From the NCBI RefSeq assembly GCF_056746865.1, contig NZ_JBWKMP010000007.1: a DNA stretch of 12,766 nucleotides. One strand, given 5' to 3'. The position numbers and the translations under genes are program-made. Numbering within the stretch: position 1 is the stretch's first letter; each line of letters starts with the position of its first letter. This DNA is from a plasmid. Below are positions 766-12,766 of the stretch, piece by piece. The notes below the pieces were generated by a model. That model was not told the DNA's origin. It was given only the letters and a program-made list of their open reading frames with translations, and searched no databases.

Positions 766-796
766 TGATGCCTCCGTGTAAGGGGGATTTCTGTTC

Positions 797-1153
797 ATGG
801 GGGTAATGATACCGATGAAACGCGAGAGGATGCTCACGATACGGGTTACTGATGATGAACATGCCCGGTTACTGGAACGCTGTGAGGGTAAACAACTGGC
901 GGTATGGATGCGGCGGGTCTGCCTGGGGGAGCCGGTTGCCCGTTCCGGGAAGCTGCCGACACTGGCACCGCCGTTACTGCGTCAGCTGGCCGCCATCGGG
1001 AATAACCTGAATCAGACCGCGAGGAAGGTGAACAGCGGGCAGTGGTCTTCCGGTGATCGGGTTCAGGTGGTGGCCGCACTGATGGCCATCGGGGATGAGC
1101 TGCGCCGGCTGCGTCTGGCCGTCAGGGAACAGGGGGCGCGGGATGATAGTTAA
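797..1153 (+). CDS. mbeC: Mobilisation accessory protein MbeC (MobC-like relaxosome component)
   Basis: 118-aa ORF immediately upstream of and overlapping the relaxase gene, in the ColE1 mbeC position. Start codon uncertain (ATG at 797, 806 or 815); purine-rich stretch aagggggga upstream. Confidence 0.75.
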   Translation: MGVMIPMKRERMLTIRVTDDEHARLLERCEGKQLAVWMRRVCLGEPVARSGKLPTLAPPLLRQLAAIGNNLNQTARKVNSGQWSSGDRVQVVAALMAIGDELRRLRLAVREQGARDDS

Positions 1154-2717
1154 ATTTCATGCCAGGGGAAAAGGTGGTGGCAGTGGTCCGGTTGATTACC
1201 TGCTGGGGAGGGAGCGTAACCGCGAAGGCGCAACGGTGCTTCAGGGTAATCCGGAAGAAGTCCGGGAACTCATCGATGCCACGCCATTTGCGAAGAAATA
1301 CACGTCAGGCGTTCTGTCGTTCGCGGAGAAGGAGTTGCCGCCGGGAGGACGTGAAAAAGTGATGGCGAGCTTTGAGCGCGTACTGATGCCAGGTCTCGAA
1401 AAGAATCAGTACAGCATCCTGTGGGTGGAGCACCAGGACAAGGGACGGCTTGAGCTGAATTTTGTCATTCCGAACATGGAGCTACAGACCGGAAAACGTC
1501 TCCAGCCGTACTACGACCGGGCAGACAGGCCGAGAATTGATGCCTGGCAGACGCTGGTGAATCACCATTACGGGCTGCATGACCCCAACGCCCCGGAGAA
1601 CCGCCGGATACTGACTCTCTCTGATAACCTGCCGGAAACGAAACAGGCGCTTGCTGAGAGCGTCACACGCGGGATAGACGCTCTTTATCATGTAGGGGAG
1701 ATAAAAGGCCGTCAGGATGTGATTCAGGCGCTCACAGAGGCGGGGCTTGAAGTGGTCAGGGTGACGCGAAGCAGCATCAGCATTGCAGACCCGAACGGCG
1801 GGAAGAATATCAGGCTGAAAGGAGCGTTTTATGAGCAATCTTTTACAGACGGGCGCGGAGTTCGAGAAAAAGCTGAAAGAGAGAGCCGAATCTACAGAGA
1901 AAGTGCTGAACAACGAGTTCAGGAGGCTCGGCGAATCTGTAAGCGAGGTTGTGACATCAAACGAGACGAAAATCAGAGACGCTATAGCCCTGTTCACAGC
2001 CTCGACAGAGGAATCGCTGGAGAAACACCGGGAAGGGGTGAAAGAGGCGATGAGGCAGCACAGGAAGGACGTGTTAAAGCTGGCAGGGAATACGGGCATG
2101 ATGTTACTGGGGATAGTCTTTCTCCTGTTTACCGCGAGTGGCGGGACGCTCTGGTATCTTGGCGGGAGGATACAGGCGAACCTGGAAGATATCAGGAAGC
2201 AGGAAGAGACATTGCAGAAACTGAACGCGAAGACATGGGGCGTGGAGTTCGTGCAGGACGGGAACAGGAAATTTCTGGTCCTTCCGTACGGGAAATCAGC
2301 AGAGGTGATTCCCTTTCAGGGGAAAGAGTGGGTACATCTGAAGGAGTGACACAGAGTGACAGAGCTGGAAACACATTTGCTGAACGCCTTAGAGCAGCTG
2401 CAACAGGACTATATGCAGCGGCTGAACGAATGGGAGAGCGCCTTCGTGGAATTGCAGAAGATGTTTTCGCTTACGCAACGGGACAACGCGATGCTGAACG
2501 AGCGGGTCATGCAGTTGAGTCAGCAGGTGCAGCACTTGAGCGAGCAGACAGAACACTTGAGCGAGCAGACAGAACACTTGAGCCAGTTATACAGCGAGAG
2601 CAGGAGATAAGGGACGAACTACTGATACAGGAACGTGAACATGAGCTATTCCTAGAGCGTGAGCGCCATCTGGAAATACAGGAACGGACACTGGATGGCC
2701 CGTCGCTGGGATGGTAA
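1143..2717 (+). CDS. mbeA: ColE1-type relaxase MbeA (MobA, HEN/MOB-P family)
   Basis: 524-aa ORF starting MIVKFHARGKGGGSGPVDYLLG with internal ATG at 1143, matching ColE1 MbeA from memory. Contains WVEHQDKGRLELNFV region. Overlaps mbeC 3' end by 11 nt. Confidence 0.9.
   Translation: MIVKFHARGKGGGSGPVDYLLGRERNREGATVLQGNPEEVRELIDATPFAKKYTSGVLSFAEKELPPGGREKVMASFERVLMPGLEKNQYSILWVEHQDKGRLELNFVIPNMELQTGKRLQPYYDRADRPRIDAWQTLVNHHYGLHDPNAPENRRILTLSDNLPETKQALAESVTRGIDALYHVGEIKGRQDVIQALTEAGLEVVRVTRSSISIADPNGGKNIRLKGAFYEQSFTDGRGVREKAERESRIYRESAEQRVQEARRICKRGCDIKRDENQRRYSPVHSLDRGIAGETPGRGERGDEAAQEGRVKAGREYGHDVTGDSLSPVYREWRDALVSWREDTGEPGRYQEAGRDIAETEREDMGRGVRAGREQEISGPSVREISRGDSLSGERVGTSEGVTQSDRAGNTFAERLRAAATGLYAAAERMGERLRGIAEDVFAYATGQRDAERAGHAVESAGAALERADRTLERADRTLEPVIQREQEIRDELLIQEREHELFLERERHLEIQERTLDGPSLGW
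1831..2349 (+). CDS. mbeB: Mobilisation protein MbeB, encoded in the +1 frame inside mbeA
   Basis: 172-aa ORF fully nested in mbeA in another frame, with a hydrophobic segment (MMLLGIVFLLFTASGGTLWYL). Same size and position as ColE1 MbeB as I recall it. Confidence 0.7.
   Translation: MSNLLQTGAEFEKKLKERAESTEKVLNNEFRRLGESVSEVVTSNETKIRDAIALFTASTEESLEKHREGVKEAMRQHRKDVLKLAGNTGMMLLGIVFLLFTASGGTLWYLGGRIQANLEDIRKQEETLQKLNAKTWGVEFVQDGNRKFLVLPYGKSAEVIPFQGKEWVHLKE
2356..2610 (+). CDS. mbeD: Mobilisation protein MbeD (about 9 kDa), nested in the 3' part of mbeA; GTG start
   Basis: 84-codon ORF beginning with GTG at 2356 directly after the mbeB stop (2347-2349). Coiled-coil-like sequence. Position and size match ColE1 mbeD from memory. 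Confidence 0.55.
   Translation: MTELETHLLNALEQLQQDYMQRLNEWESAFVELQKMFSLTQRDNAMLNERVMQLSQQVQHLSEQTEHLSEQTEHLSQLYSESRR
2533..2583. repeat. Perfect 21-bp tandem duplication (cacttgagcgagcagacagaa x2, plus 9-bp partial third copy) inside overlapping mbeA/mbeD
   Basis: Direct reading: units at 2533-2553 and 2554-2574, partial at 2575-2583. In frame in both genes (ERADRTL x2 in MbeA, EQTEHLS x2 in MbeD). Confidence 0.9.
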
Positions 2718-2825
2718 CCAAAGACAGGCTAAAGTGTTGTCAGCGCGTTTCCGGTGCATTTTTTTGGATAATGGTTGGTTCAGGGCACTAGGAACTAGCT
2801 TCAGTCAGGCCTTGCTGAAAACACA

Positions 2826-2961
2826 GGAACGCGTTAAAACGCATACGGACGCGTTTCTGGCGCTCAAAAACCATGGGGTTAGTGTGGGTAGTGTGTATAG
2901 CAACAGGAGCCTGGAACGCGTTCCGCTTCTTCTGTAATCGACGCCAGAATGCGTTTAATGC
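2826..2961. promoter_or_regulatory. Cluster of dyad-symmetric motifs (GGAACGCGTT x2 including perfect palindrome GGAACGCGTTCC; inverted pair gacgcgtttctggcgc / gacgccagaatgcgttt)
   Basis: Direct reading: ggaacgcgtt at 2826-2835 and 2913-2922; gacgcgtttctggcgc at 2848-2863 with inverted partner cgccagaatgcg at 2942-2953. Function unknown; may be protein-binding sites. Confidence 0.3.
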
Positions 2962-3100
2962 TTCTTCTGATGGTATCAGAGAGGAGCTGCTTGAGTTATT
3001 CCTGTTGGCCACAGAGCGTAATTATCTCCTTTTCAGATCCACACGGGGATACGTCAGAATCGGAACTGAGCAAGGATTACTGAAAGATACTGTTTGCCAG

Positions 3101-3125
3101 AAAAAAAATCCTCATACATGATGAG
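3101..3125 (-). terminator. Hairpin followed by T8 on the minus strand (candidate intrinsic terminator for minus-strand transcription leaving the AT-rich island)
   Basis: Plus strand aaaaaaaatcctcatacatgatgaggat: 8-bp stem atcctcat/atgaggat, 5-nt loop. The A8 run on plus becomes a U-tract after the stem on the minus strand. Confidence 0.45.
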
Positions 3126-3420
3126 GATAAAGTCTTAAAGGTCCATTCTATGGAGTGTCGGATTGAAAAATTTCTCCGGATGATATCCTTCACAGTTTAA
3201 ATGTGATTTCAACCATAAGTTTTTTATGGATTTTGTTAAATAAAAAAGAATTGAGTCGTGTTTCTGATATGTCTGAATATAATAAGTGAACAGTTATAAA
3301 ATAATTGTTTTATATTTATTGTGAGTTTGATGTTATGTTCTGCATAAATAACTGTAGTTTAGAATATTATTCTTTTATATTTATAGCTGTGAGATGATAA
3401 ATTATAAGTGTTCTTTGTGC

Positions 3421-3448
3421 TATAAAGAACCCCCCGTATAAGGGGGGG
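3421..3448 (-). terminator. C6/G7 hairpin (ccccccgtataaggggggg) with U-rich tail on the minus strand
   Basis: Stem 3430-3435 / 3442-3448. Minus-strand reading gives the stem followed by ttcttta. Confidence 0.35.
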
Positions 3449-3564
3449 TAAAAGATGGGTTTACTTCTTTTTAGTCCATGCCCTGGTGAGCTACATGAAG
3501 CTCGACACTACAGTAAAGATTTGCAGTTTTTTTGAACTTTACGCAAGCAATTTATTTACATTGT

Positions 3565-3593
3565 AAAGAAAACCCCCTCAATTCCGGAGGGGG
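3565..3593 (-). terminator. Hairpin ccccctc-aattccg-gaggggg with U-tract on the minus strand
   Basis: Stem 3573-3579 / 3587-3593. The plus-strand A-run 3566-3572 becomes ttttctt 3' of the stem on the minus strand. Confidence 0.4.
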
Positions 3594-3898
3594 AGTGTAG
3601 GGAAGTGCCTGATTTATTTTATGTACGCGCAAAAATGAGATAGCTTTTATTAGATATCATCAGCCCTGTCTGCATCAGTCAGCTCCTTACAGCGTCAGGA
3701 GTACTGATGAAGGGGGGGAACGTTCCTGCGTTTTTGCAAAGGCAATCCGGCTAGAGGCTTTACTACGCAGAAACATTCCGGACAACTTTTTACCCCAGTG
3801 TAACTTGTAGATCAACCAGATTTTGTTGCAGTAAAAATACAGTGGTTTCGAATTTGTAACATTTGTCACAAAAATAACATCAATATGTTGGTTTTCTG

Positions 3899-3928
3899 TT
3901 GATAAATGGTTTGGTCGCTGATTATGAT
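3899..3928 (+). promoter_or_regulatory. Sigma70-like promoter candidate (TTGATA, 18-bp spacer, TATGAT)
   Basis: -35 ttgata at 3899-3904; -10 tatgat at 3923-3928. Followed by a leader hairpin gtactcc/ggagtac (3935-3952) that would sequester the AGGAG at 3944-3948. Confidence 0.3.
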
Positions 3929-3992
3929 TTCCTTGTACTCCACAGGAGTACAGTCATGTGCATACTAAAATCCGTGTTTTCGATAAAATTAA

Positions 3993-4020
3993 GGCCGTGA
4001 TACAGAATCACGGCTTTTTT
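3993..4020 (+). terminator. Rho-independent terminator (ggccgtga-tacagaa-tcacggc + T6)
   Basis: 7-8-bp GC-rich stem 3993-4000 / 4008-4014, T-run 4015-4020. Confidence 0.6.
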
Positions 4021-4056
4021 CTTGCCTGAAAGGATCATTTACGCTAGAAGAATTAT

Positions 4057-4119
4057 GAGCGCGTCTCTGGTGTTTGTTGCAGGGATAATATCTAATATGG
4101 GGCACCGGAAACGCGCTCT
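4057..4119. repeat. Dyad module A: 16-bp imperfect inverted repeat (gagcgcgtctctggtg ... caccggaaacgcgctc) around a loop of about 31 nt
   Basis: Direct reading. Paralogous to module B; the arms differ from B by a compensatory change (gcgcg/cgcgc in A versus gcgtg/cacgc in B). Confidence 0.5.
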
Positions 4120-4197
4120 CCCTTCGTATACAGAATGCCCATTAATTTCTTCTTCCTGATTTTCCAGACATATATTCTTGTGTAAATTAAAAAACAG

Positions 4198-4272
4198 AGC
4201 GTGTTTCTGGTGTGAATTTGTTGGCTACAATGTGCATTGTTGTTCTGTGTTCCAGAAACACGCTTCTTTTTT
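4198..4272. repeat. Dyad module B: 13-bp perfect inverted repeat (agcgtgtttctgg ... ccagaaacacgct), loop about 38 nt, A-run upstream and T6 downstream (bidirectional terminator-like)
   Basis: Direct reading: arms 4199-4211 and 4252-4264, T-run 4267-4272, A-run 4190-4195. Confidence 0.5.
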
Positions 4273-4395
4273 GAGATGCACATCGGTCTTATACAAAGAG
4301 GGATGGTTGTATCTGTGTCAGAGTTTTGTTATTTTTTGTATGCTCAGTTATTGATGGTTAATAATATCAAGAAAATCAGCAAGTTCCTTACACTA

Positions 4396-4421
4396 CCCCT
4401 CTTCAGTAGAGGGGTTTTTTT
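4396..4421 (+). terminator. Rho-independent terminator (cccctct-tcagt-agagggg + T7)
   Basis: Stem 4396-4402 / 4408-4414, T-run 4415-4421. Confidence 0.65.
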
Positions 4422-4490
4422 ATCTGGTACGCCGTAAAACCCGGTCCTTCAGGGCGTAGAGGATGTCAAAAATTTCTTCGAAAGGTAATA

Positions 4491-4721
4491 CCCGGTATCC
4501 CGCTCATGCTGGCGAACCCAGACACGCAGGGTCTCTGGCGTACAGCCAATCTTTGGAGCAATGGAACAAATTGCCGCCCATTGTGAGTCATATTCGCCCT
4601 GGCTTTCCAGAACCATACGAACTGCCCGTTGACGGACTTCGGGGGAAAAACGAGTATTTTTAGTCATCCTGTTTACATCTTTCTCAGGAAGTTTAGTCTC
4701 CAGGATTTCCGGGGCGGTTCA
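4491..4721 (-). mobile_element. 5' remnant of an IS3-family element (IS629/IS1203-like): terminal inverted repeat plus the first 59 codons of orfA, truncated
   Basis: Minus-strand ORF 4449..4667 begins [59 protein letters not shown], which matches IS629-type OrfA from memory, then diverges into an unrelated 13-aa tail. The reverse complement of 4690-4721 is the IS-end-like tgaaccgccccggaaatcctggagactaaac. Confidence 0.7.
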
Positions 4722-4949: not shown

Positions 4950-5200
4950 AACTTCTATTTTGTGGAATCGAAAACAGCTGAAAATTGTGAAAAAAAACCG
5001 TTTCAGTCGTCTCAGTAAGGAAATTCGCTTGTGATTCACCTGGATGCATAGGTATGCATAAGGTTAAAATTTATCAGGCGCGATCGCGGTAGTTTTTCGG
5101 GGGGGTTGTTGCGATTTTTACCTGTCTGCTGCCGTGATTGCGCTGAATGCATTTCAGCGGTGCGTACAATTAAGGGATTATGGTAAATCCACTTACTGTC
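4950..5200. other. cer: cer-like multimer resolution site with XerC/XerD core ggtgcgtacaa-ttaaggga-ttatggtaaat at 5159-5188
   Basis: Core is identical to the ColE1 cer crossover site as I recall it. Upstream accessory region (gcataaggttaaaatttatcaggcgcgatcgcgg ...) also resembles cer, including paired tgcata half-sites near 5042-5060 (possible ArgR box). Confidence 0.7.
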
Positions 5201-5612
5201 TTCCCTCGTAGCCATCGAGATAAACCGCAGAAATCGTCTCAGCCAGCAGCCTGGATTTTTTCGGGGTAAGGTCTTTGCTGCGGTAATCAGTACCCGCAAA
5301 TTGAGTTGTGCCCCGGAGTGAGTTTAAAAATTCCTGGCTGTGAAACTGCTGAATGCGTTGCTGCACATCACTCCGTGATTTTCCTGTCGCTTTATCCTTT
5401 GCTCCCATATCCCAGAACTGCCGGAAAAAAGGCACCATCATTCGTGTTGTGTCGGCCTTCTGGGTGGAAAAGTTAGGATCAAAACCATCGTCTGATGCAT
5501 AAACGTAATGCCGGGTATGTTGTTCCACACTGCCCTTTGGCGTGCAGGCTGTCAGGACCGTTGCCGCTGTCAGCAGGGCGATAAGATACAGTGTGCCGCC
5601 GGAACGTCTCAT
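5193..5612 (-). CDS. Putative lipoprotein of unknown function (139 aa; signal peptide with lipobox LTAC)
   Basis: N-terminus MRRSGGTLYLIALLTAATVLTAC has a basic n-region, hydrophobic core and L-T-A-C lipobox. Mature protein is hydrophilic. I do not recognise the family. Confidence 0.55.
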   Translation of the reverse strand: MRRSGGTLYLIALLTAATVLTACTPKGSVEQHTRHYVYASDDGFDPNFSTQKADTTRMMVPFFRQFWDMGAKDKATGKSRSDVQQRIQQFHSQEFLNSLRGTTQFAGTDYRSKDLTPKKSRLLAETISAVYLDGYEGRQ

Positions 5613-5695
5613 GAGTGTCTCCTTACCTTTAAATCTTTGTACTCAGTGACTTATATTTAACCGCTGACTATCTTATCATCACTTGCAGTCGGTGC

Positions 5696-6133
5696 TCACC
5701 GGCTGAACAGTCTGGCCCAGAATCCCCGTTTTTTTTCCTGCTCCAGTGCCTGCCTGAGCTGCTCTATCTCTTTATGTAGCTGTTCCCGTTCGGCTTCCTG
5801 GCGCCGGCGTTCCGTAGCCTGTGCCTGTTTGTCCTCAAGCATCAGTGTCAGGCATTGTCTCAGCTCATTCAGCTCCCGGAGAATGCGTTCTGTCTGCTGA
5901 TCATGTGGATTTTCTGCCTGTCCCGCACTGTGCCTTTCTGGTGTCTCATCCTGCTTTAATTCGCCGTATGCCCGGATCAGTTCACTGGTTTCAAACTCCC
6001 GCCGTCCGTCCTGGCCTGTACGATAACTGACAAGGCCTGCGCGCATATCACGGTAAAACTGTGAACGCGATCTGCCTGTCATTTTCAGTGCGTTCTGGAG
6101 TGTGTGCCATGCCATGAAGTGACAGTGTCCCAT
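5696..6133 (-). CDS. Putative small DNA-binding protein with N-terminal helix-turn-helix-like segment and C-terminal coiled coil (start codon ambiguous)
   Basis: AWHTLQNALKMTGRSRSQFYRDMRAGLVSY looks like an HTH. C-terminus RRRQEAEREQLHKEIEQLRQALEQEKKR is a charged heptad-like helix. No strong RBS at any of the three candidate ATGs. Confidence 0.5.
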   Translation of the reverse strand: MGHCHFMAWHTLQNALKMTGRSRSQFYRDMRAGLVSYRTGQDGRREFETSELIRAYGELKQDETPERHSAGQAENPHDQQTERILRELNELRQCLTLMLEDKQAQATERRRQEAEREQLHKEIEQLRQALEQEKKRGFWARLFSR

Positions 6134-6281
6134 TAATGTCTCATATCATGGTTTCAGTAAAACATACTGGGGCCGGAGAACGGTAATGTTTGTGCTGGTT
6201 TTTGTGGCATCGGGTGGGAATAGCACGTGGTGTGGGTGGCTGTTTTTTTGATCGTTTTCACAAAAATGAAAATCCACAGGG

Positions 6282-6346
6282 TTGACAGGGAAAATGCAGC
6301 GGCGTAATTTTAAGCTGTATATAAAACCAGTAGTTATATATACAGT
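6282..6346 (+). promoter_or_regulatory. Colicin SOS promoter: -35 TTGACA (6282-6287), -10 TAATTT (6305-6310), tandem LexA boxes beginning CTGTATATAAAACCAG (6315-6330) and extending to 6346
   Basis: gctgtatataaaaccagtagttatatatacagta matches the dual CTGT-N8-ACAG LexA operator arrangement known for colicin E1-type promoters. RBS agagga lies 7 nt before the ATG at 6393. Confidence 0.8.
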
Positions 6347-6392
6347 ATATTGCTTTTAACTATTTGTTTTTAATGTCAAAGAGGATTTTATA

Positions 6393-7456
6393 ATGGAAAC
6401 AGCTGTAGCGTACTATAAAGATGGTGTTCCTTATGATGATAAGGGGCAGGTAATCATTACTCTTTTGAATGGTAATCCAGACGGGAGTGGCTCTGGCGGC
6501 GGTGGTGGAACTGGAGGTAGCAAAAGTGAAAGTTCTGCAGCCATTCATGCCACAGCTAAATGGTCTACTGCTCAATTGAAGAAAACGCAGGCAGAACAGG
6601 CTGCCCGGGCAAAAGCTGCCGCAGAAGCACAGGCTAAAGCAAAAGCAAACCGGGATGCGCTGACTCAACATCTGAAGGATATTGTGAATGAGGCGCTTCG
6701 TCATAATTCCACTCATCCGGAGGTTATTGACCTGGCTCATGCCAATAATGCAGCGATGCAGGCAGAAGCAGAGCGGTTGCGCCTTGCAAAAGCAGAAGAA
6801 AAAGCCCGTAAAGAAGCGGAAGCTGCGGAAAAGGCTTTTCAGGAGGCAGAACAACGACGCAAAGAGATAGAGAAGGAGCAGGCTGAAACAGAACGCCAGT
6901 TGAAACTGGCTGAAGCTGAAGAGAAACGGCTGGCAGCATTGAATGAAGAGGCCCGGGCAGTGGAGGTGGCACAAAAAAATCTTGCTGCTGCACAATCTGA
7001 GCTGGCGAAAGTGGATGAAGAGATTAAGACTCTCAATACCCGTTTAAGCTCCAGTATTCATGCCCGTGATGCAGAAATGAATACGCTGTCCGGAAAACGA
7101 AATGAGCTGGCTCAGGCATCTGCTAAATATAAGGAACTTGATGAACTGGTCAAAAAATTGTCACCAAGAGCTAATGATCCGCTTCAGAGTCGTCCTTTTT
7201 TCTATGCCACCAGTCGACGGACGGGAGCCGGTAAGATTATGGAGGAAAACAAAAACAGGTAACAGCATCAGAAACGCGTATTAACCAACTTAATGCTGAG
7301 ATAAATGGAATTCAGGGGGCTATGTCTCAGGCTAATAATAATCGTAATACAGCTGTTTTACGTGTTCATGAATCTGAAGAAAATTTGAAAACAGCGCAGA
7401 CTAATCTCCTGAACTCGCAGATTAAGGATGCTGTGGATGCAACAGTTAGCTTTTAT
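6393..7456 (+). pseudogene. cea: Colicin E1-type gene, 5' part (translocation and receptor-binding domains), with a 1-nt frameshift in an A-run (7246-7249) and truncated by the IS21-family insertion at 7456/7457
   Basis: METAVAYYKDGVPYDDKGQVIITLLNGNPDGSGSGGGGG... matches colicin E1 from memory. Frame 0 stops at 7260-7262; the colicin-like reading continues in the -1 frame (VTASETRIN...DAVDATVSFY) to 7456. Confidence 0.85.
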
Positions 7457-7658
7457 TGCAAAATGGCATCTGAATCGATCGCAGTTTGGCATTCGAATCG
7501 ATCATGATTTGGCATCCATCTCCGATCACAGTTTGGCATCACAATCGATCACGATTTGGCATGCTTCCGATCATTGATTGGCATCCTGCCAGTCACTCCG
7601 GGAATTAACTCTTTTCACCACAGTCTCCATTGCCGTGTTTAAACCAGTGGAGACGTCA

Positions 7659-9224
7659 ATGTCCAGAAAGAGAAAATCCAGGAGCACTATGGAAACCTGT
7701 TTTAAGATTCTTCAGCTCAAGTTCGACAAGAAGCTGACTAACCGTTGTATCGGACTGACGTTACACATCAGCGCCTCAACCGTTTTTGAGGTTCTTGCCC
7801 GCTTCAAAGCCTCTTCTCTGTCATGGCCATTACCTGCTGATATATCCCATGACACGCTGGAGAAACTCATTTTTCCGCCCAAAGACACCTTTGCATCAGA
7901 GCTTGTAATGCCTGACATGTTGTACCTCGATACGGAAATGAGAAAACCAGGTGTGACGCGGCAACTGTTGTGGATGGAATACAAGGCACAGGCGGGTAAC
8001 AAAGCGATGGGATACTCGCACTTCTGCCGTTGCTACCGGGAGTGGAAAAAAACGCGACGTCTCTCCATGCGCCAGGAGCATCGTGCCGGCGAAAAGCTTT
8101 TTATCGACTTCTGTGGTCCTACGGTTCCTGTTATTAATCCGGACACCGGTGAGATACGCCGCGTGGCAATCTTCGTGGCCGTAATGGGGGCGTCCAACTA
8201 TACCTACGTTGAAGCGTGCGAAGGTCAGGACATGATGTCATGGTTAAATGCCCACAGCCGTTGCCTGACCTTCCTGGGCGGCGTACCGAAGCTGCTCATC
8301 CCCGATAACCTCAGAAGCGCAGTGAAAAAGGCCGATCGATATGAGCCTGTCATCAACGACAGTTATCAGGCACTGGCTGAGCACTATGGCACGGTTATCA
8401 TCCCGGCCCGACCACGCAAACCTAAAGATAAACCAAAAGCAGAAAACGGCGTCCTCATCGTCGAACGATGGCTTCTTGCCCGCATCCGTAATGAAACCTT
8501 CCACACGCTCAGGGCGCTGAATGCGCGCCTTAGGGAGTTACTGACAGACATGAATAACCGGCCAATGAAGGGGTACGGCAATCAAACCCGTGCAGAACGC
8601 TTCCGCATACTGGATGCGCCAGCACTCTCTCCGCTGCCTCTGGCACCTTATGAATACACGGAATACAAAGCTGTGAAGGTTGGCCCTGACTACCACGTTG
8701 AATATGCCCGTCACTGGTACTCCGTTCCACACGAACTGGTCGGTCAGCGTCTGTCACTGAAGGCGGGGCAGTCGGTGGTACAGCTCTGGCACAAGGGGCA
8801 GTGTGTGGCGCAACATCCGCGCAGCACACATGAATATAAACACACAACCAATCCGCTTCACATGCCAGAGCGCCACCGGCAGCACGGGACATGGACACCG
8901 GAACGCCTGATCGAGCAGGGAAAACGTACGGGCCCGTCCACAGGCCGGGTGGTTGAATCCATGCTGAAGGCAAAACCCCATCCGGAACTGGCTTATCGTG
9001 CAGTTCTGGGGCTGCTGGCACTTCAGAAAAAATACGGCCCGGAACGGCTGGAAAAGGCCTGTTACGTTGCCCTGCACTATAACGCCCCTGACAGACGCTT
9101 TATCGACAATCTGCTGCGTCACCATCGGGAGAACCTGGAGCTTCCATTATCCCGCCAGGGCGAACAACATCCGGCATATGCTTCAGAGCATGAAAACCTG
9201 CGTGGTCCGGGCTACTACCACTGA
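7659..9224 (+). CDS. istA: IS21-family transposase IstA (521 aa)
   Basis: Long ORF with a DDE-type integrase core and the IstA-typical layout; followed 16 nt later by istB. ATG at 7659 preceded by ggag. Confidence 0.85.
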   Translation: MSRKRKSRSTMETCFKILQLKFDKKLTNRCIGLTLHISASTVFEVLARFKASSLSWPLPADISHDTLEKLIFPPKDTFASELVMPDMLYLDTEMRKPGVTRQLLWMEYKAQAGNKAMGYSHFCRCYREWKKTRRLSMRQEHRAGEKLFIDFCGPTVPVINPDTGEIRRVAIFVAVMGASNYTYVEACEGQDMMSWLNAHSRCLTFLGGVPKLLIPDNLRSAVKKADRYEPVINDSYQALAEHYGTVIIPARPRKPKDKPKAENGVLIVERWLLARIRNETFHTLRALNARLRELLTDMNNRPMKGYGNQTRAERFRILDAPALSPLPLAPYEYTEYKAVKVGPDYHVEYARHWYSVPHELVGQRLSLKAGQSVVQLWHKGQCVAQHPRSTHEYKHTTNPLHMPERHRQHGTWTPERLIEQGKRTGPSTGRVVESMLKAKPHPELAYRAVLGLLALQKKYGPERLEKACYVALHYNAPDRRFIDNLLRHHRENLELPLSRQGEQHPAYASEHENLRGPGYYH

Positions 9225-9240
9225 CAGAAGGAACAACAGT

Positions 9241-9996
9241 ATGAGTGATAACCTGTTAAACAAACTGACCCAACTGAAACTCCCGGCGATGGCCGGGAGC
9301 CTGATACGGCAGCGGGAAACGCCTCAGACCTACGACGAACTGTCGTTCGAGGAAAGGCTGACGCTGCTGGTTGATGACGAGCTTCTGAGCAGGGAAAACA
9401 GCCGTGTGGCACGGTTGAGAAAAAATGCCGGCCTGAAATACCAGGCAACACCGGAAGGGCTGCGCTATCCGGCCTCAAGAGGTCTGCGGGCTGAACAGAT
9501 GAGAGAACTGCTGAACGGCCACTACATAACCCACAGGAAAAACCTGCTGATAACCGGTCCGACAGGATGTGGCAAGAGCTGGATAGCCAATGCGCTGGGC
9601 GAACAGGCATGTCGACAGAAACACAGCGTCCGGTACTGTAGAACCGGGCGATTACTGGAACAACTGGCTCAGGGACGTGTTGATGGCAGCTGGCTGAAAT
9701 ATCTGAAACAGTTGCAAAAAATACAGGTTCTAATCCTGGACGATCTGGGGCTGGAACAGTTAAGTAACGCCCAGTGTAATGACCTTCTGGAGCTCATAGA
9801 GGATCGTTACGGACAAAGCAGCACGATAGTGGTAAGCCAGTTCCCGGTAGATAAATGGCATGGTCTGATGGAGAACCCAACAACAGCAGATGCCATCCTG
9901 GACAGACTGGTACATAACTCACACCGGGTGGTCCTTCAGGGAGAGTCACTGAGGAAAAATCCCCCGGTAGTGGAAAGCAGCGAAAAAACGCGTTAA
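9241..9996 (+). CDS. istB: IS21-family helper ATPase IstB (251 aa)
   Basis: Walker A GPTGCGKS and Walker B VLILDDLG motifs. RBS gaagga upstream of the ATG at 9241. Confidence 0.9.
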   Translation: MSDNLLNKLTQLKLPAMAGSLIRQRETPQTYDELSFEERLTLLVDDELLSRENSRVARLRKNAGLKYQATPEGLRYPASRGLRAEQMRELLNGHYITHRKNLLITGPTGCGKSWIANALGEQACRQKHSVRYCRTGRLLEQLAQGRVDGSWLKYLKQLQKIQVLILDDLGLEQLSNAQCNDLLELIEDRYGQSSTIVVSQFPVDKWHGLMENPTTADAILDRLVHNSHRVVLQGESLRKNPPVVESSEKTR

Positions 9997-10095
9997 AAAG
10001 CGGTAGAAAAAGTTAAGTTCCCGGTTGATCGAATGGATGCGAATCGCTGATCGGACTTCGATGCCAATCCGTGATCGAATAGAGCGGAATACGCA

Positions 10096-10593
10096 CTTTT
10101 ATCAAACGCTATCTGAAAAATATGGTGAAAAATATTCAAAAATGGCACAGGAACTTGCTGATAAGTCTAAAGGTAAGAAAATCAGCAATGTGAATGAAGC
10201 TCTAGCTGCTTTTGAAAAATACAAGGATGTTTTAAATAAGAAATTCAGCAAAGCAGACCGTGATGCGATTTTCAATGCACTGGAATCGGTTAAGTATGAA
10301 GACTGGGCTAAGCATTTAGATCAGTTTGCTAAGTACTTGAAGATTACGGGACATGTTTCTTTTGGATATGATGTGGTATCTGATATCCTAAAAATTAAGG
10401 ATACAGGTGACTGGAAGCCACTATTTCTTACATTAGAGAAGAAAACTGTAGATGCTGGAGTTAGTTATATTGTTTTAGTGTGCTTGCTGGAACTACATTA
10501 GGTATCTGGGGGATTGCTATTGTTACAGGCATTCTATGTGCCTTTATTGACAAGAATAAACTTAATACTATAAATGATGTGTTGGGTATTTAA
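10096..10593 (+). pseudogene. cea: Colicin E1-type gene, 3' part (pore-forming domain), carrying a roughly 10-nt deletion/frameshift near 10473 in the hydrophobic helical hairpin
   Basis: [28 protein letters not shown]...[20 protein letters not shown] matches the colicin E1 channel domain from memory. Frame stops at 10499-10501; the remaining C-terminus ([35 protein letters not shown]) is in another frame ending at 10591-10593. Confidence 0.8.
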
Positions 10594-11040: not shown

Positions 11041-12235
<1,195 letters not shown>

Positions 12236-12370: not shown

Positions 12371-12766
12371 GTAAACGAAAAAACCGCCTGGGGAGGCGGT
12401 TTGATCGAAGGTTAAGTCAGTTGGGGAACTGCTTAACCGAGGTAACTGGCTTCAGCAGAGCGCAGATACCAAATACTGTCCTTCCAGTGTAGCCGTAGTC
12501 GGGCCACTACTTCAAGAACTCTGTTGCACCATTTGCGCCATCATCGCTCTGCTAACCAAGTTACCAACGGCTGCTGCCAGTGGCGCTTTGTCGTGTCTTA
12601 CCGGGTTGGACTCAAGACGATAGTTACCGGATAAGGCGCAGCGGTCGGGCTGAACGGGGGGTTCGTGCACACAGCCCAGCTTGGAGCGAACGACCTACAC
12701 CGAACTGAGATACCAACAGCGTGAGCTATGAGAAAGCGCCACGCTTCCCGAAGGGAGAAAGGCGGA
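12371..12766 (+). ncRNA. RNAII: RNA II replication primer precursor, 5' portion (continues into 1-about 160 if circular)
   Basis: Homology by eye to the ColE1 RNA II 5' region, with stem-loops such as ccgcctggggaggcgg (12384-12399). Downstream sequence is near-identical to pMB1 (ggtaactggcttcagcagagcgcagataccaaatactgtcctt...). Confidence 0.75.
12372..12479 (-). ncRNA. RNAI: RNA I antisense copy-number control RNA (about 108 nt)
   Basis: Complement of the first roughly 108 nt of RNA II. The minus strand begins acagtatttggtatctgcgctctgctgaagccagttacc as in pMB1 RNA I, and ends in a stem-loop plus U-tract (complement of aaaaaaccgcctggggaggcgg). Confidence 0.7.

Follow-up and report, generated by a model that had tools for sequence, protein, structure and literature searches.

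Two G/C hairpins in an unannotated module of a ColE1-type colicin plasmid as candidate 3′ ends of minus-strand RNAs

Do two closely spaced hairpins in an annotation gap of an E. coli colicin plasmid end small RNAs made from the minus strand, or do they mark something else? The window, that is, the whole stretch of 12,766 nucleotides analyzed here (contig NZ_JBWKMP010000007.1, assembly GCF_056746865.1), is by its sequence a ColE1-type E. coli colicin plasmid; two insertions excepted, it gives a 99.6–100% alignment over its whole length to AP026459 (pMTY1886_NA4, 8899 bp; also NZ_CP128975). Both insertions are absent from the 8899-bp reference: the pore-forming colicin gene is split by an IS21-family element (istA/istB, 7457–10095), and an IS5-family element (11041–12235) lies between the lysis gene and the replication origin. 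The region 2600–4450 is without any RefSeq annotation, and after this gap the RefSeq gene order continues with a truncated IS3-family transposase (−), exc2 and a second gene (−), and then the colicin, immunity and lysis genes. The gene order therefore places both hairpins in the gap between the mob genes and the IS remnant, where they form part of a 1.5-kb module (Table 1). A cer-site identity of the hairpin region was ruled out, since the exact XerCD core lies elsewhere in the plasmid. A literature search on the module region found nothing.

Table 1. Features of the module and its surroundings, in window coordinates, with the identity between the two lineages of the module.
Feature	Position	Strand	Identity between lineages	Details
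mobC, mbeA, mbeB, mbeD	up to ~2600	+		RefSeq annotation
Unannotated module	2847–4394			1.5 kb; contains both hairpins
Segment	3095–3215		93%	
Third hairpin	3108–3128	−		ATCCTCAT...ATGAGGAT; U8 tail 3101–3108; terminator scan, score +11
Segment	3216–3429		57%	
Hairpin 1 U-tract	3421–3429	−		interrupted; minus strand TTCTTTATA; tail score 2.4–3.1
Hairpin 1	3430–3448	−	47%	CCCCCC (3430–3435), loop GTATAA, GGGGGGG (3442–3448); sequence, terminator scan
87-bp block	3449–3535		95%	flanks 57% and 68%
ORF26	3455–3535	+		26 codons, MGLLLFSPCPGELHEARHYSKDLQFF; inside the 87-bp block
Segment	3536–3572		68%	
Hairpin 2 U-tract	3565–3572	−		TTTTCTTT; 8–9 uninterrupted T in the diverged lineage
Hairpin 2	3573–3593	−	81%	CCCCCTC (3573–3579), loop AATTCCG, GAGGGGG (3587–3593); sequence, terminator scan
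3′ module of hairpin 2	3594–3613	−		ATCAGGCACTTCCCTACACT; conserved, single-stranded, 20 nt; directly 5′ of hairpin 2 in the RNA sense
18-codon ORF	3619–3691	−		MQTGLMISNKSYLIFART; AAGGAG SD, 7 nt, ATG (3675); ORF proper 3675–3619, ends 25 nt before hairpin 2
Candidate sRNA (d)	3899–4023, promoter included	+		~88 nt, ~3935–4023; promoter TTGATA-18-TATGAT (3899–3928)
Segment	3931–4025		90%	
Promoter-like site	4186–4159	−		conserved
Unit (e)	4305–4422	+		inverted paralogue of the hairpin-2 3′ module; score +30
cer XerCD core	5159–5188			exact ColE1 XerC/XerD site, GGTGCGTACAATTAAGGGATTATGGTAAAT
RNAI	12375–12477	−		Rfam match above gathering threshold

The initial annotation had placed hairpins at 3430–3448 and 3573–3593, about 120 bp apart, with their U-tracts on the minus strand. 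Both are present at these positions in the sequence, the bracketed stretch measures 124 bp (3449–3572), and the terminator scan and the combined hairpin and tail score agree that the U-tracts (scan tails TCTTTATAGC and TTTTCTTTAC) belong to the minus strand only. Each hairpin has seven pairs, six of them G–C, around a 6–7-nt loop, within the bounds used for a G/C-stem terminator (at least 5 bp, loop of 3–8 nt), with predicted energies of −13.8 kcal/mol for hairpin 1 and −13.2 kcal/mol for hairpin 2. Runs of five or more C occur only three times in the window; two of the three are the 5′ arms of these hairpins and face a run of five or more G at most 12 nt away, which argues against a chance origin of the arms. 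When read on the plus strand, the hairpins score −35 (hairpin 1) and −48 (hairpin 2) on a d'Aubenton-Carafa-type scale; we note that this score uses ViennaRNA energies and is approximate, as is its threshold, the known RNAI terminator itself scoring −6.

Comparison with canonical E. coli intrinsic terminators, such as that of RNAI (12381–12402), reveals a similar G/C-rich stem of 6–7 bp, a loop of 6–7 nt, a U-rich tail that follows directly and on one strand only, and predicted energies in the same range (−12 to −14 kcal/mol). Both hairpins differ from such terminators in their arms, which are homopolymeric C and G runs and rare in this plasmid, and hairpin 1 differs further in its interrupted U-tract (UUCUUUAU) and in not being conserved as a terminator in a sister lineage of the module. 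We infer that both are Rho-independent terminator-type structures that would act on minus-strand RNA in vivo. On their own, two intrinsic terminators are routine features and the hairpins are ordinary. The whole window holds 29 terminator-like sites, compared with 13.3 ± 3.9 in shuffled sequences.

The evolutionary evidence comes from the distribution of the module, which was found in 36 of 5426 complete E. coli genomes, on plasmids in every case and never on a chromosome; in this complete-genome search, E. coli plasmids were its only hosts, and a search of a phage collection gave no match. The copies fall into two lineages that are ~80% identical to each other. Those of the first are at least 98% identical and reside on ColE1-like plasmids of 5.7–15 kb with E1-type or Y-type colicin genes; those of the second, the diverged or sister lineage, reside on conjugative plasmids of 93–384 kb, mostly from poultry. 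The large-plasmid copies have IS elements on their flanks, and one adjoins remnants of a relaxase and of a “tolA-like” gene, the latter read here as a piece of a colicin gene. In the 175-kb plasmid L004 (NZ_CP184146), an IS3 transposase fragment, a “tolA family” gene fragment and a frameshifted relaxase stand beside the diverged module (5017–8250). This “tolA family” gene is probably the N-terminal part of a colicin, and the arrangement suggests that the large-plasmid copy is part of an integrated, diverged or decayed small colicin plasmid. No third lineage emerged when GTDB species genomes and metagenomes were scanned: four GTDB matches to the pattern of the 3′ module, in unrelated marine and soil MAGs, lack a following hairpin and were dismissed as chance, and a codon-degenerate ORF26 pattern retrieved from metagenomes the same two lineages and one chance match. 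Because only two real lineages exist, all covariation evidence presented below rests on very few independent substitutions.

From this comparison, the case for hairpin 2 as a minus-strand intrinsic terminator is convincing. On the minus strand it scores +15 in this plasmid and +31 in the diverged lineage. The latter keeps the stem with one change at its foot (7 to 6 bp), has AATTTTA in the loop in place of AATTCCG, and has a longer U-run (8–9). The 20-nt segment that precedes hairpin 2 in the RNA is common to unit (e) and to a copy on a MOBQ plasmid, and the combination of ATCAGnnAnTTCCnTACACT, a hairpin and a run of Us thus exists in three paralogous copies. The three stems differ and each is self-complementary: CCCCCTC/GAGGGGG, ACCCCTCT/AGAGGGGT and ACCCTCA/TGAGGGT. 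Paralogues with differing and yet self-complementary stems constitute the strongest evidence that hairpin 2 has been selected as the 3′ end of an RNA. We favor a reading in which a small transcript of the minus strand would have hairpin 2 as its functional 3′ end; this end, composed of the single-stranded 20-nt segment (AUCAGGCACUUCCCUACACU), the G/C hairpin and the U-tail, would have the layout of a base-pairing regulatory RNA, with the 3′ module duplicated in inverted orientation at 4375–4422 and a co-resident MOBQ plasmid carrying it once more. Large plasmids also retain the hairpin 2 unit, with IS elements on both flanks and no adjoining mob or exc genes. In variant L005 (NZ_CP158424), ISEc12 (IS21 family) is inserted inside the hairpin 2 loop, at ~3183.

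The 5′ portion of this putative transcript is less sharply drawn. Its promoter is weakly defined, the candidates being TTGATC-17-TAAAAA, which is without the T at position 6 of the −10 element, and ATGATA-17-CATTTT (7/12 matches to consensus). The 18-codon minus-strand ORF upstream of hairpin 2 has its SD and AUG within a predicted local hairpin, and its coding capacity is doubtful because the diverged lineage has lost both this SD and the stop codon. A role as leader peptide of an attenuator was rejected for the same loss and because no ORF follows downstream. A long-range pairing between the 3′ module and the SD, of the fbi type known from hok, can be drawn by hand at 15 of 18 positions; it was likewise rejected, as it is absent from the minimum-free-energy fold and the hand pairing shows no compensatory change in the sister lineage.

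Neighboring units of the module possess good promoter and terminator pairs on their own strands. The initial annotation had also listed a third minus-oriented terminator at 3101–3125, and this is essentially right: the hairpin occupies 3108–3128 and is flanked by A8 on the plus strand (3101–3108). It is invariant between the lineages and is preceded in the transcript by a body (3129–3215) that is 93% conserved; most likely, it functions as an intrinsic terminator that ends a short and probably regulatory minus-strand RNA. On the plus strand, 3899–4023 is a strong candidate for an unannotated sRNA of 88 nt, termed (d). Both lineages retain its promoter, which agrees with the consensus in 10 of 12 bases. 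In the predicted RNA, an AU-rich linker connects a 5′ hairpin to a terminator (3991–4017) with an 11-bp stem and a U6 tail (fold z = −4.4, no Rfam match), and the terminator stem shows a compensatory change from C–G to T–A in the sister lineage.

Unit (e) contains the 3′ module of hairpin 2 as an inverted paralogue, made up of ATCAGCAAGTTCCTTACACT (4375–4394), a terminator (4395–4415) and a U7 tail. A 120-nt homologue, 83% identical and with a co-varying terminator stem, lies at 2999–3117 (−) of L007 (AP026461), an unrelated 5.6-kb MOBQ plasmid. Plasmids of this type occur in seven of the 5426 complete E. coli genomes, and all seven genomes also carry the 1.5-kb module (36/5426), which is either a striking co-occurrence or the product of a shared poultry epidemiology. 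Two different IS3-family elements are inserted at the same base, equivalent to window position 4394 and directly 5′ of the unit (e) terminator, in separate large plasmids (L008 and L009; L004, L011 and L021). The complementarity of the candidate trans-acting RNAs (d) and (e) is short, and an ungapped RNA target scan returned one match above shuffles, in the colicin gene. There, the unit (e) seed ATCAGCAAGTTCCT (4375–4388) has a perfect 14-nt complement at 10149–10162 (+), in the pore-domain coding sequence of the E1-type colicin (AQELAD motif). Next to this complement lies AAGAAAATCAGCAA, which recurs as a direct repeat at 10176–10189, and both the complement and the repeat are absent from the colicin Y gene of a module-bearing plasmid. 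The 14-nt match may be chance.

Two further repeated elements were observed. A motif of 14–17 nt, GAGCGYGTYTCYGGTG, has direct copies at 2741–2757, 2850–2863, 4057–4073 and 4197–4213 and inverted copies at 4102–4118 and 4252–4265, forming two large imperfect palindromes (4057–4118 and 4190–4272); a role as protein-binding site or as RNA hairpin is conceivable. An element of ~50 nt, GGTACGCCGTAAAACCCGGTCCTTCAGGGCGTAGAGGATGTCA (4416–4474), is found on most of the 735 plasmid records that match a 4290–4480 query, with hosts including Escherichia, Salmonella, Klebsiella and even Xylella. Its neighbor in the window is the truncated IS3-family transposase; the MOBQ plasmid has it as an inverted pair ~215 bp apart, and an IncI-gamma/K1 plasmid carries it a short way upstream of the putative promoter of a pndA-like (Hok/Gef) gene.

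The arrangement of the terminators would also fit a purely passive role, in which three minus-strand terminators in series insulate a zone of convergent transcription and stop leftward read-through from running antisense into mob, with no dedicated small RNA. On the plus strand, the mob operon runs to about 2937, and the next terminator comes only at 3991 (the terminator scan found no plus-strand site from 771 to 3991), while transcription from the exc genes (5193–6133, −), the IS3-family remnant and possibly other promoters farther right would meet no strong minus-strand terminator before hairpin 2, the scan giving between 5193 and hairpin 2 only a weak site at 4014–3994. Terminators of falling quality, hairpin 2 and then hairpin 1, are what back-up termination would produce. 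Insulation leaves unexplained, however, the 95% conservation of 3449–3535 and the conserved 20-nt segment before hairpin 2, the existence of paralogous copies, one of them on another plasmid, and the retention of the hairpin 2 unit between IS elements in large plasmids, away from any adjoining mob or exc gene. We consider insulation as the sole function rather unlikely.

Hairpin 1 is a different matter from hairpin 2, and as a minus-strand intrinsic terminator or 3′ hairpin it is marginal on sequence grounds. Its minus-strand score varies with the stem limits chosen (+6 or −11) and falls to −31, with a poor tail, in the diverged lineage. There, the plus strand reads CCCCCATATCAGGGAG, and only CTCCC/GGGGG (5 bp) is left of the stem. 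This remnant pairs only in the minus sense (CUCCC/GGGGG, with one G·U), the plus-sense hairpin carrying a C·A mismatch. In the favored reading, hairpin 1 would be a weaker, lineage-specific second stop, or a hairpin that protects a 3′ end, catching read-through from hairpin 2, and the read-through RNA would be antisense to the 87-bp block and ORF26. The proposal of the initial annotation that the terminators together imply short minus-strand transcripts is thus sustained as to their orientation and the terminator-like character of hairpin 2 and of 3108–3128, and weakened at hairpin 1.

Between the hairpins, a 95% conserved block beside a flank of 57% identity indicates that 3449–3535 is under constraint. 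A sigma-70-like promoter on the minus strand that is conserved in both lineages was not found in this interval; a separate transcript of ~120 nt confined to it, as had been envisaged, is therefore not indicated. Any minus-strand RNA made from there is more likely a read-through product past hairpin 2 or a processed product. As to the nature of the constrained product, RNAalifold analysis of seven distinct variants yields −31.7 kcal/mol for the minus strand (covariation −1.57) versus −29.4 kcal/mol for the plus strand (−0.36), and the five one-sided substitutions in the helices predicted for the minus strand all permit G·U pairing. Since the comparison represents essentially one evolutionary split, this minus-strand preference is suggestive only, and it weakly favors a minus-sense RNA as the constrained product.

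The competing candidate for the constrained product is a plus-strand micro-gene. According to this explanation, ORF26 would make a 26-residue peptide, and hairpin 1 would not be a terminator: it would be a 5′-UTR structure that occludes the SD and would control translation or stabilize the mRNA, and, together with minus-strand read-through RNA, the locus would resemble a type I toxin–antitoxin (TA) system or an antisense-regulated small ORF. Read on the plus strand, the G-run of hairpin 1 does resemble an SD and precedes the ATG at 3455 by 7 nt, and ATG and SD-like run (3442–3457) are present in all ten variants despite indels of 1–4 nt between them, the run taking the forms GGGGGGG, GGGAGA and GGGAGGT, a pattern that fits hairpin 1 at least as well when viewed as a translational element. 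Frame and length of ORF26 are kept in both lineages, which differ by G11V, D22N, L23F, synonymous changes at A17 and Q24, and a change of stop from TGA to TAA. A promoter-like site with its −10 ending at ~3402 is likewise present in both, although the sequence there has diverged. Against this, three variants (L005, L010 and L023) carry a 1-nt insertion that puts the last four codons out of frame, and codons 1–10 show no change, third positions included, a pattern indicative of constraint at the nucleotide rather than the protein level. Neither the ORF26 peptide (MGLLLFSPCPGELHEARHYSKDLQFF) nor the 18-codon peptide (MQTGLMISNKSYLIFART) contains a hydrophobic stretch of transmembrane length on reading of the sequences, the former has no family match, no plus-strand terminator follows ORF26, and the plus-sense hairpin 1 has the C·A mismatch in the diverged lineage. 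From these sequence features, coding by ORF26 is equivocal, and we regard the micro-gene as an unlikely explanation of the hairpins. Of the two small ORFs to which minus-strand RNA had been proposed to be antisense, the one at 3455 thus keeps its ATG and SD with coding equivocal, while that at 3497 is not conserved: the lineage alignment shows several non-synonymous changes and a lost stop, so it does not appear to be coding.

Protein- and RNA-family searches give the module no known identity. Rfam, searched at gathering thresholds and at E ≤ 10 over 2800–4700, returned only RNAI at the origin as a passing match, all matches within 2800–4700 lying far below their gathering scores; weak “Hrs1” matches on both hairpins belong to these and were discarded. 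Selected small ORFs in and beside the module, together with a 128-aa ORF, have no match in Pfam or NCBIfam. The 128-aa ORF, annotated by PGAP in the diverged lineage, is the only long ORF annotated in the module region; its protein database matches are to the same locus only, and a decayed-gene reading was rejected. Frame-breaking indels separate the lineages, and neither relatives outside the module nor a family that would identify a protein-coding gene or pseudogene were found.

Plasmid antisense and seed RNAs and type I TA loci (hok/sok and pndA/pndB; on chromosomes, tisB/istR-1, zorO/orzO and shoB/ohsC) are among the closest known systems: like them, the module would have short, terminator-bounded transcripts on a plasmid. 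It also includes a small ORF whose SD could be sequestered in a hairpin and which an opposite-strand RNA would overlap, and a sequence repeat provides RNA complementarity, with 16 of the 18 bases at the SD/AUG region 3674–3691 pairing by eye with unit (e). The element at 4416–4474 is a remnant of sequence found upstream of pndA in IncI plasmids. Unlike these systems, however, the module has no match to Hok/Gef or another toxin family, neither small peptide is hydrophobic, and no promoter was found for an antisense RNA between the hairpins; in Rfam, matches to Sok, FinP, CopA and RNAs of that kind are absent, and the complementarity of unit (e) to the SD/AUG region is not maintained in the diverged lineage.

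A likeness to the terminal inverted repeats of MITEs and IS elements also had to be weighed, since the region holds two hairpin-bearing, inverted copies of ~55 bp (3565–3621 and 4370–4425). The whole locus could then be a functionless relic, decaying DNA left by IS-mediated rearrangements, in which the hairpin 2 region and 4370–4425 are the ends of a dead miniature element and the conserved blocks reflect recent recombination. The inverted copies do face outward around ~860 bp, IS remnants always adjoin the module, and IS insertions lie in or beside the hairpins (ISEc12 in L005; the two IS3-family elements before the unit (e) terminator). This likeness ends at several points: no target-site duplication is seen at the outer ends, conserved sequence runs on outside the repeats, the module homology extending 700 bp left of the supposed left end, only a single arm is present on the MOBQ plasmid, and there is no multi-copy family, the searches of E. 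coli genomes, GTDB species genomes and metagenomes having yielded no additional copies. The stems have, moreover, changed in compensatory and G·U-compatible ways, which speaks for selection on structure. We hold a functionless relic to be highly improbable.

In sum, we consider that the hairpins of the module may be Rho-independent terminators of minus-strand RNAs, with hairpin 2 ending a small RNA and hairpin 1 acting as a secondary stop, an explanation to which we give about an even chance. Together with the 3108–3128 terminator, the module would then be a row of short, terminator-bounded and probably regulatory units in place of protein genes. The transcript starts and RNA targets named here are predictions from the same sequences. 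We note that this explanation and its three rivals are not mutually exclusive.

If the hairpins do end small RNAs, a poultry-associated family of E. coli colicin plasmids carries a regulatory-RNA module that is invisible to current annotation, every record giving “none” under the region, and large plasmids of the IncK/IncI/F type contain embedded relatives of it. Such modules could have effects on the maintenance or mobilization of plasmids, on colicin expression or on the interactions between co-resident plasmids. A more far-reaching reading, which we regard as very unlikely, is that the module is a cassette of several small regulatory RNAs (at least the hairpin-2 RNA, (e), (d) and the RNA ending at 3108), one of them antisense to a conserved micro-ORF, with a seed-plus-terminator module shared with the MOBQ plasmid. 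Were it true, it would imply cross-talk at the RNA level between co-resident plasmids, which might reach as far as the E1-type colicin mRNA through the 14-nt perfect complement to the unit (e) seed.
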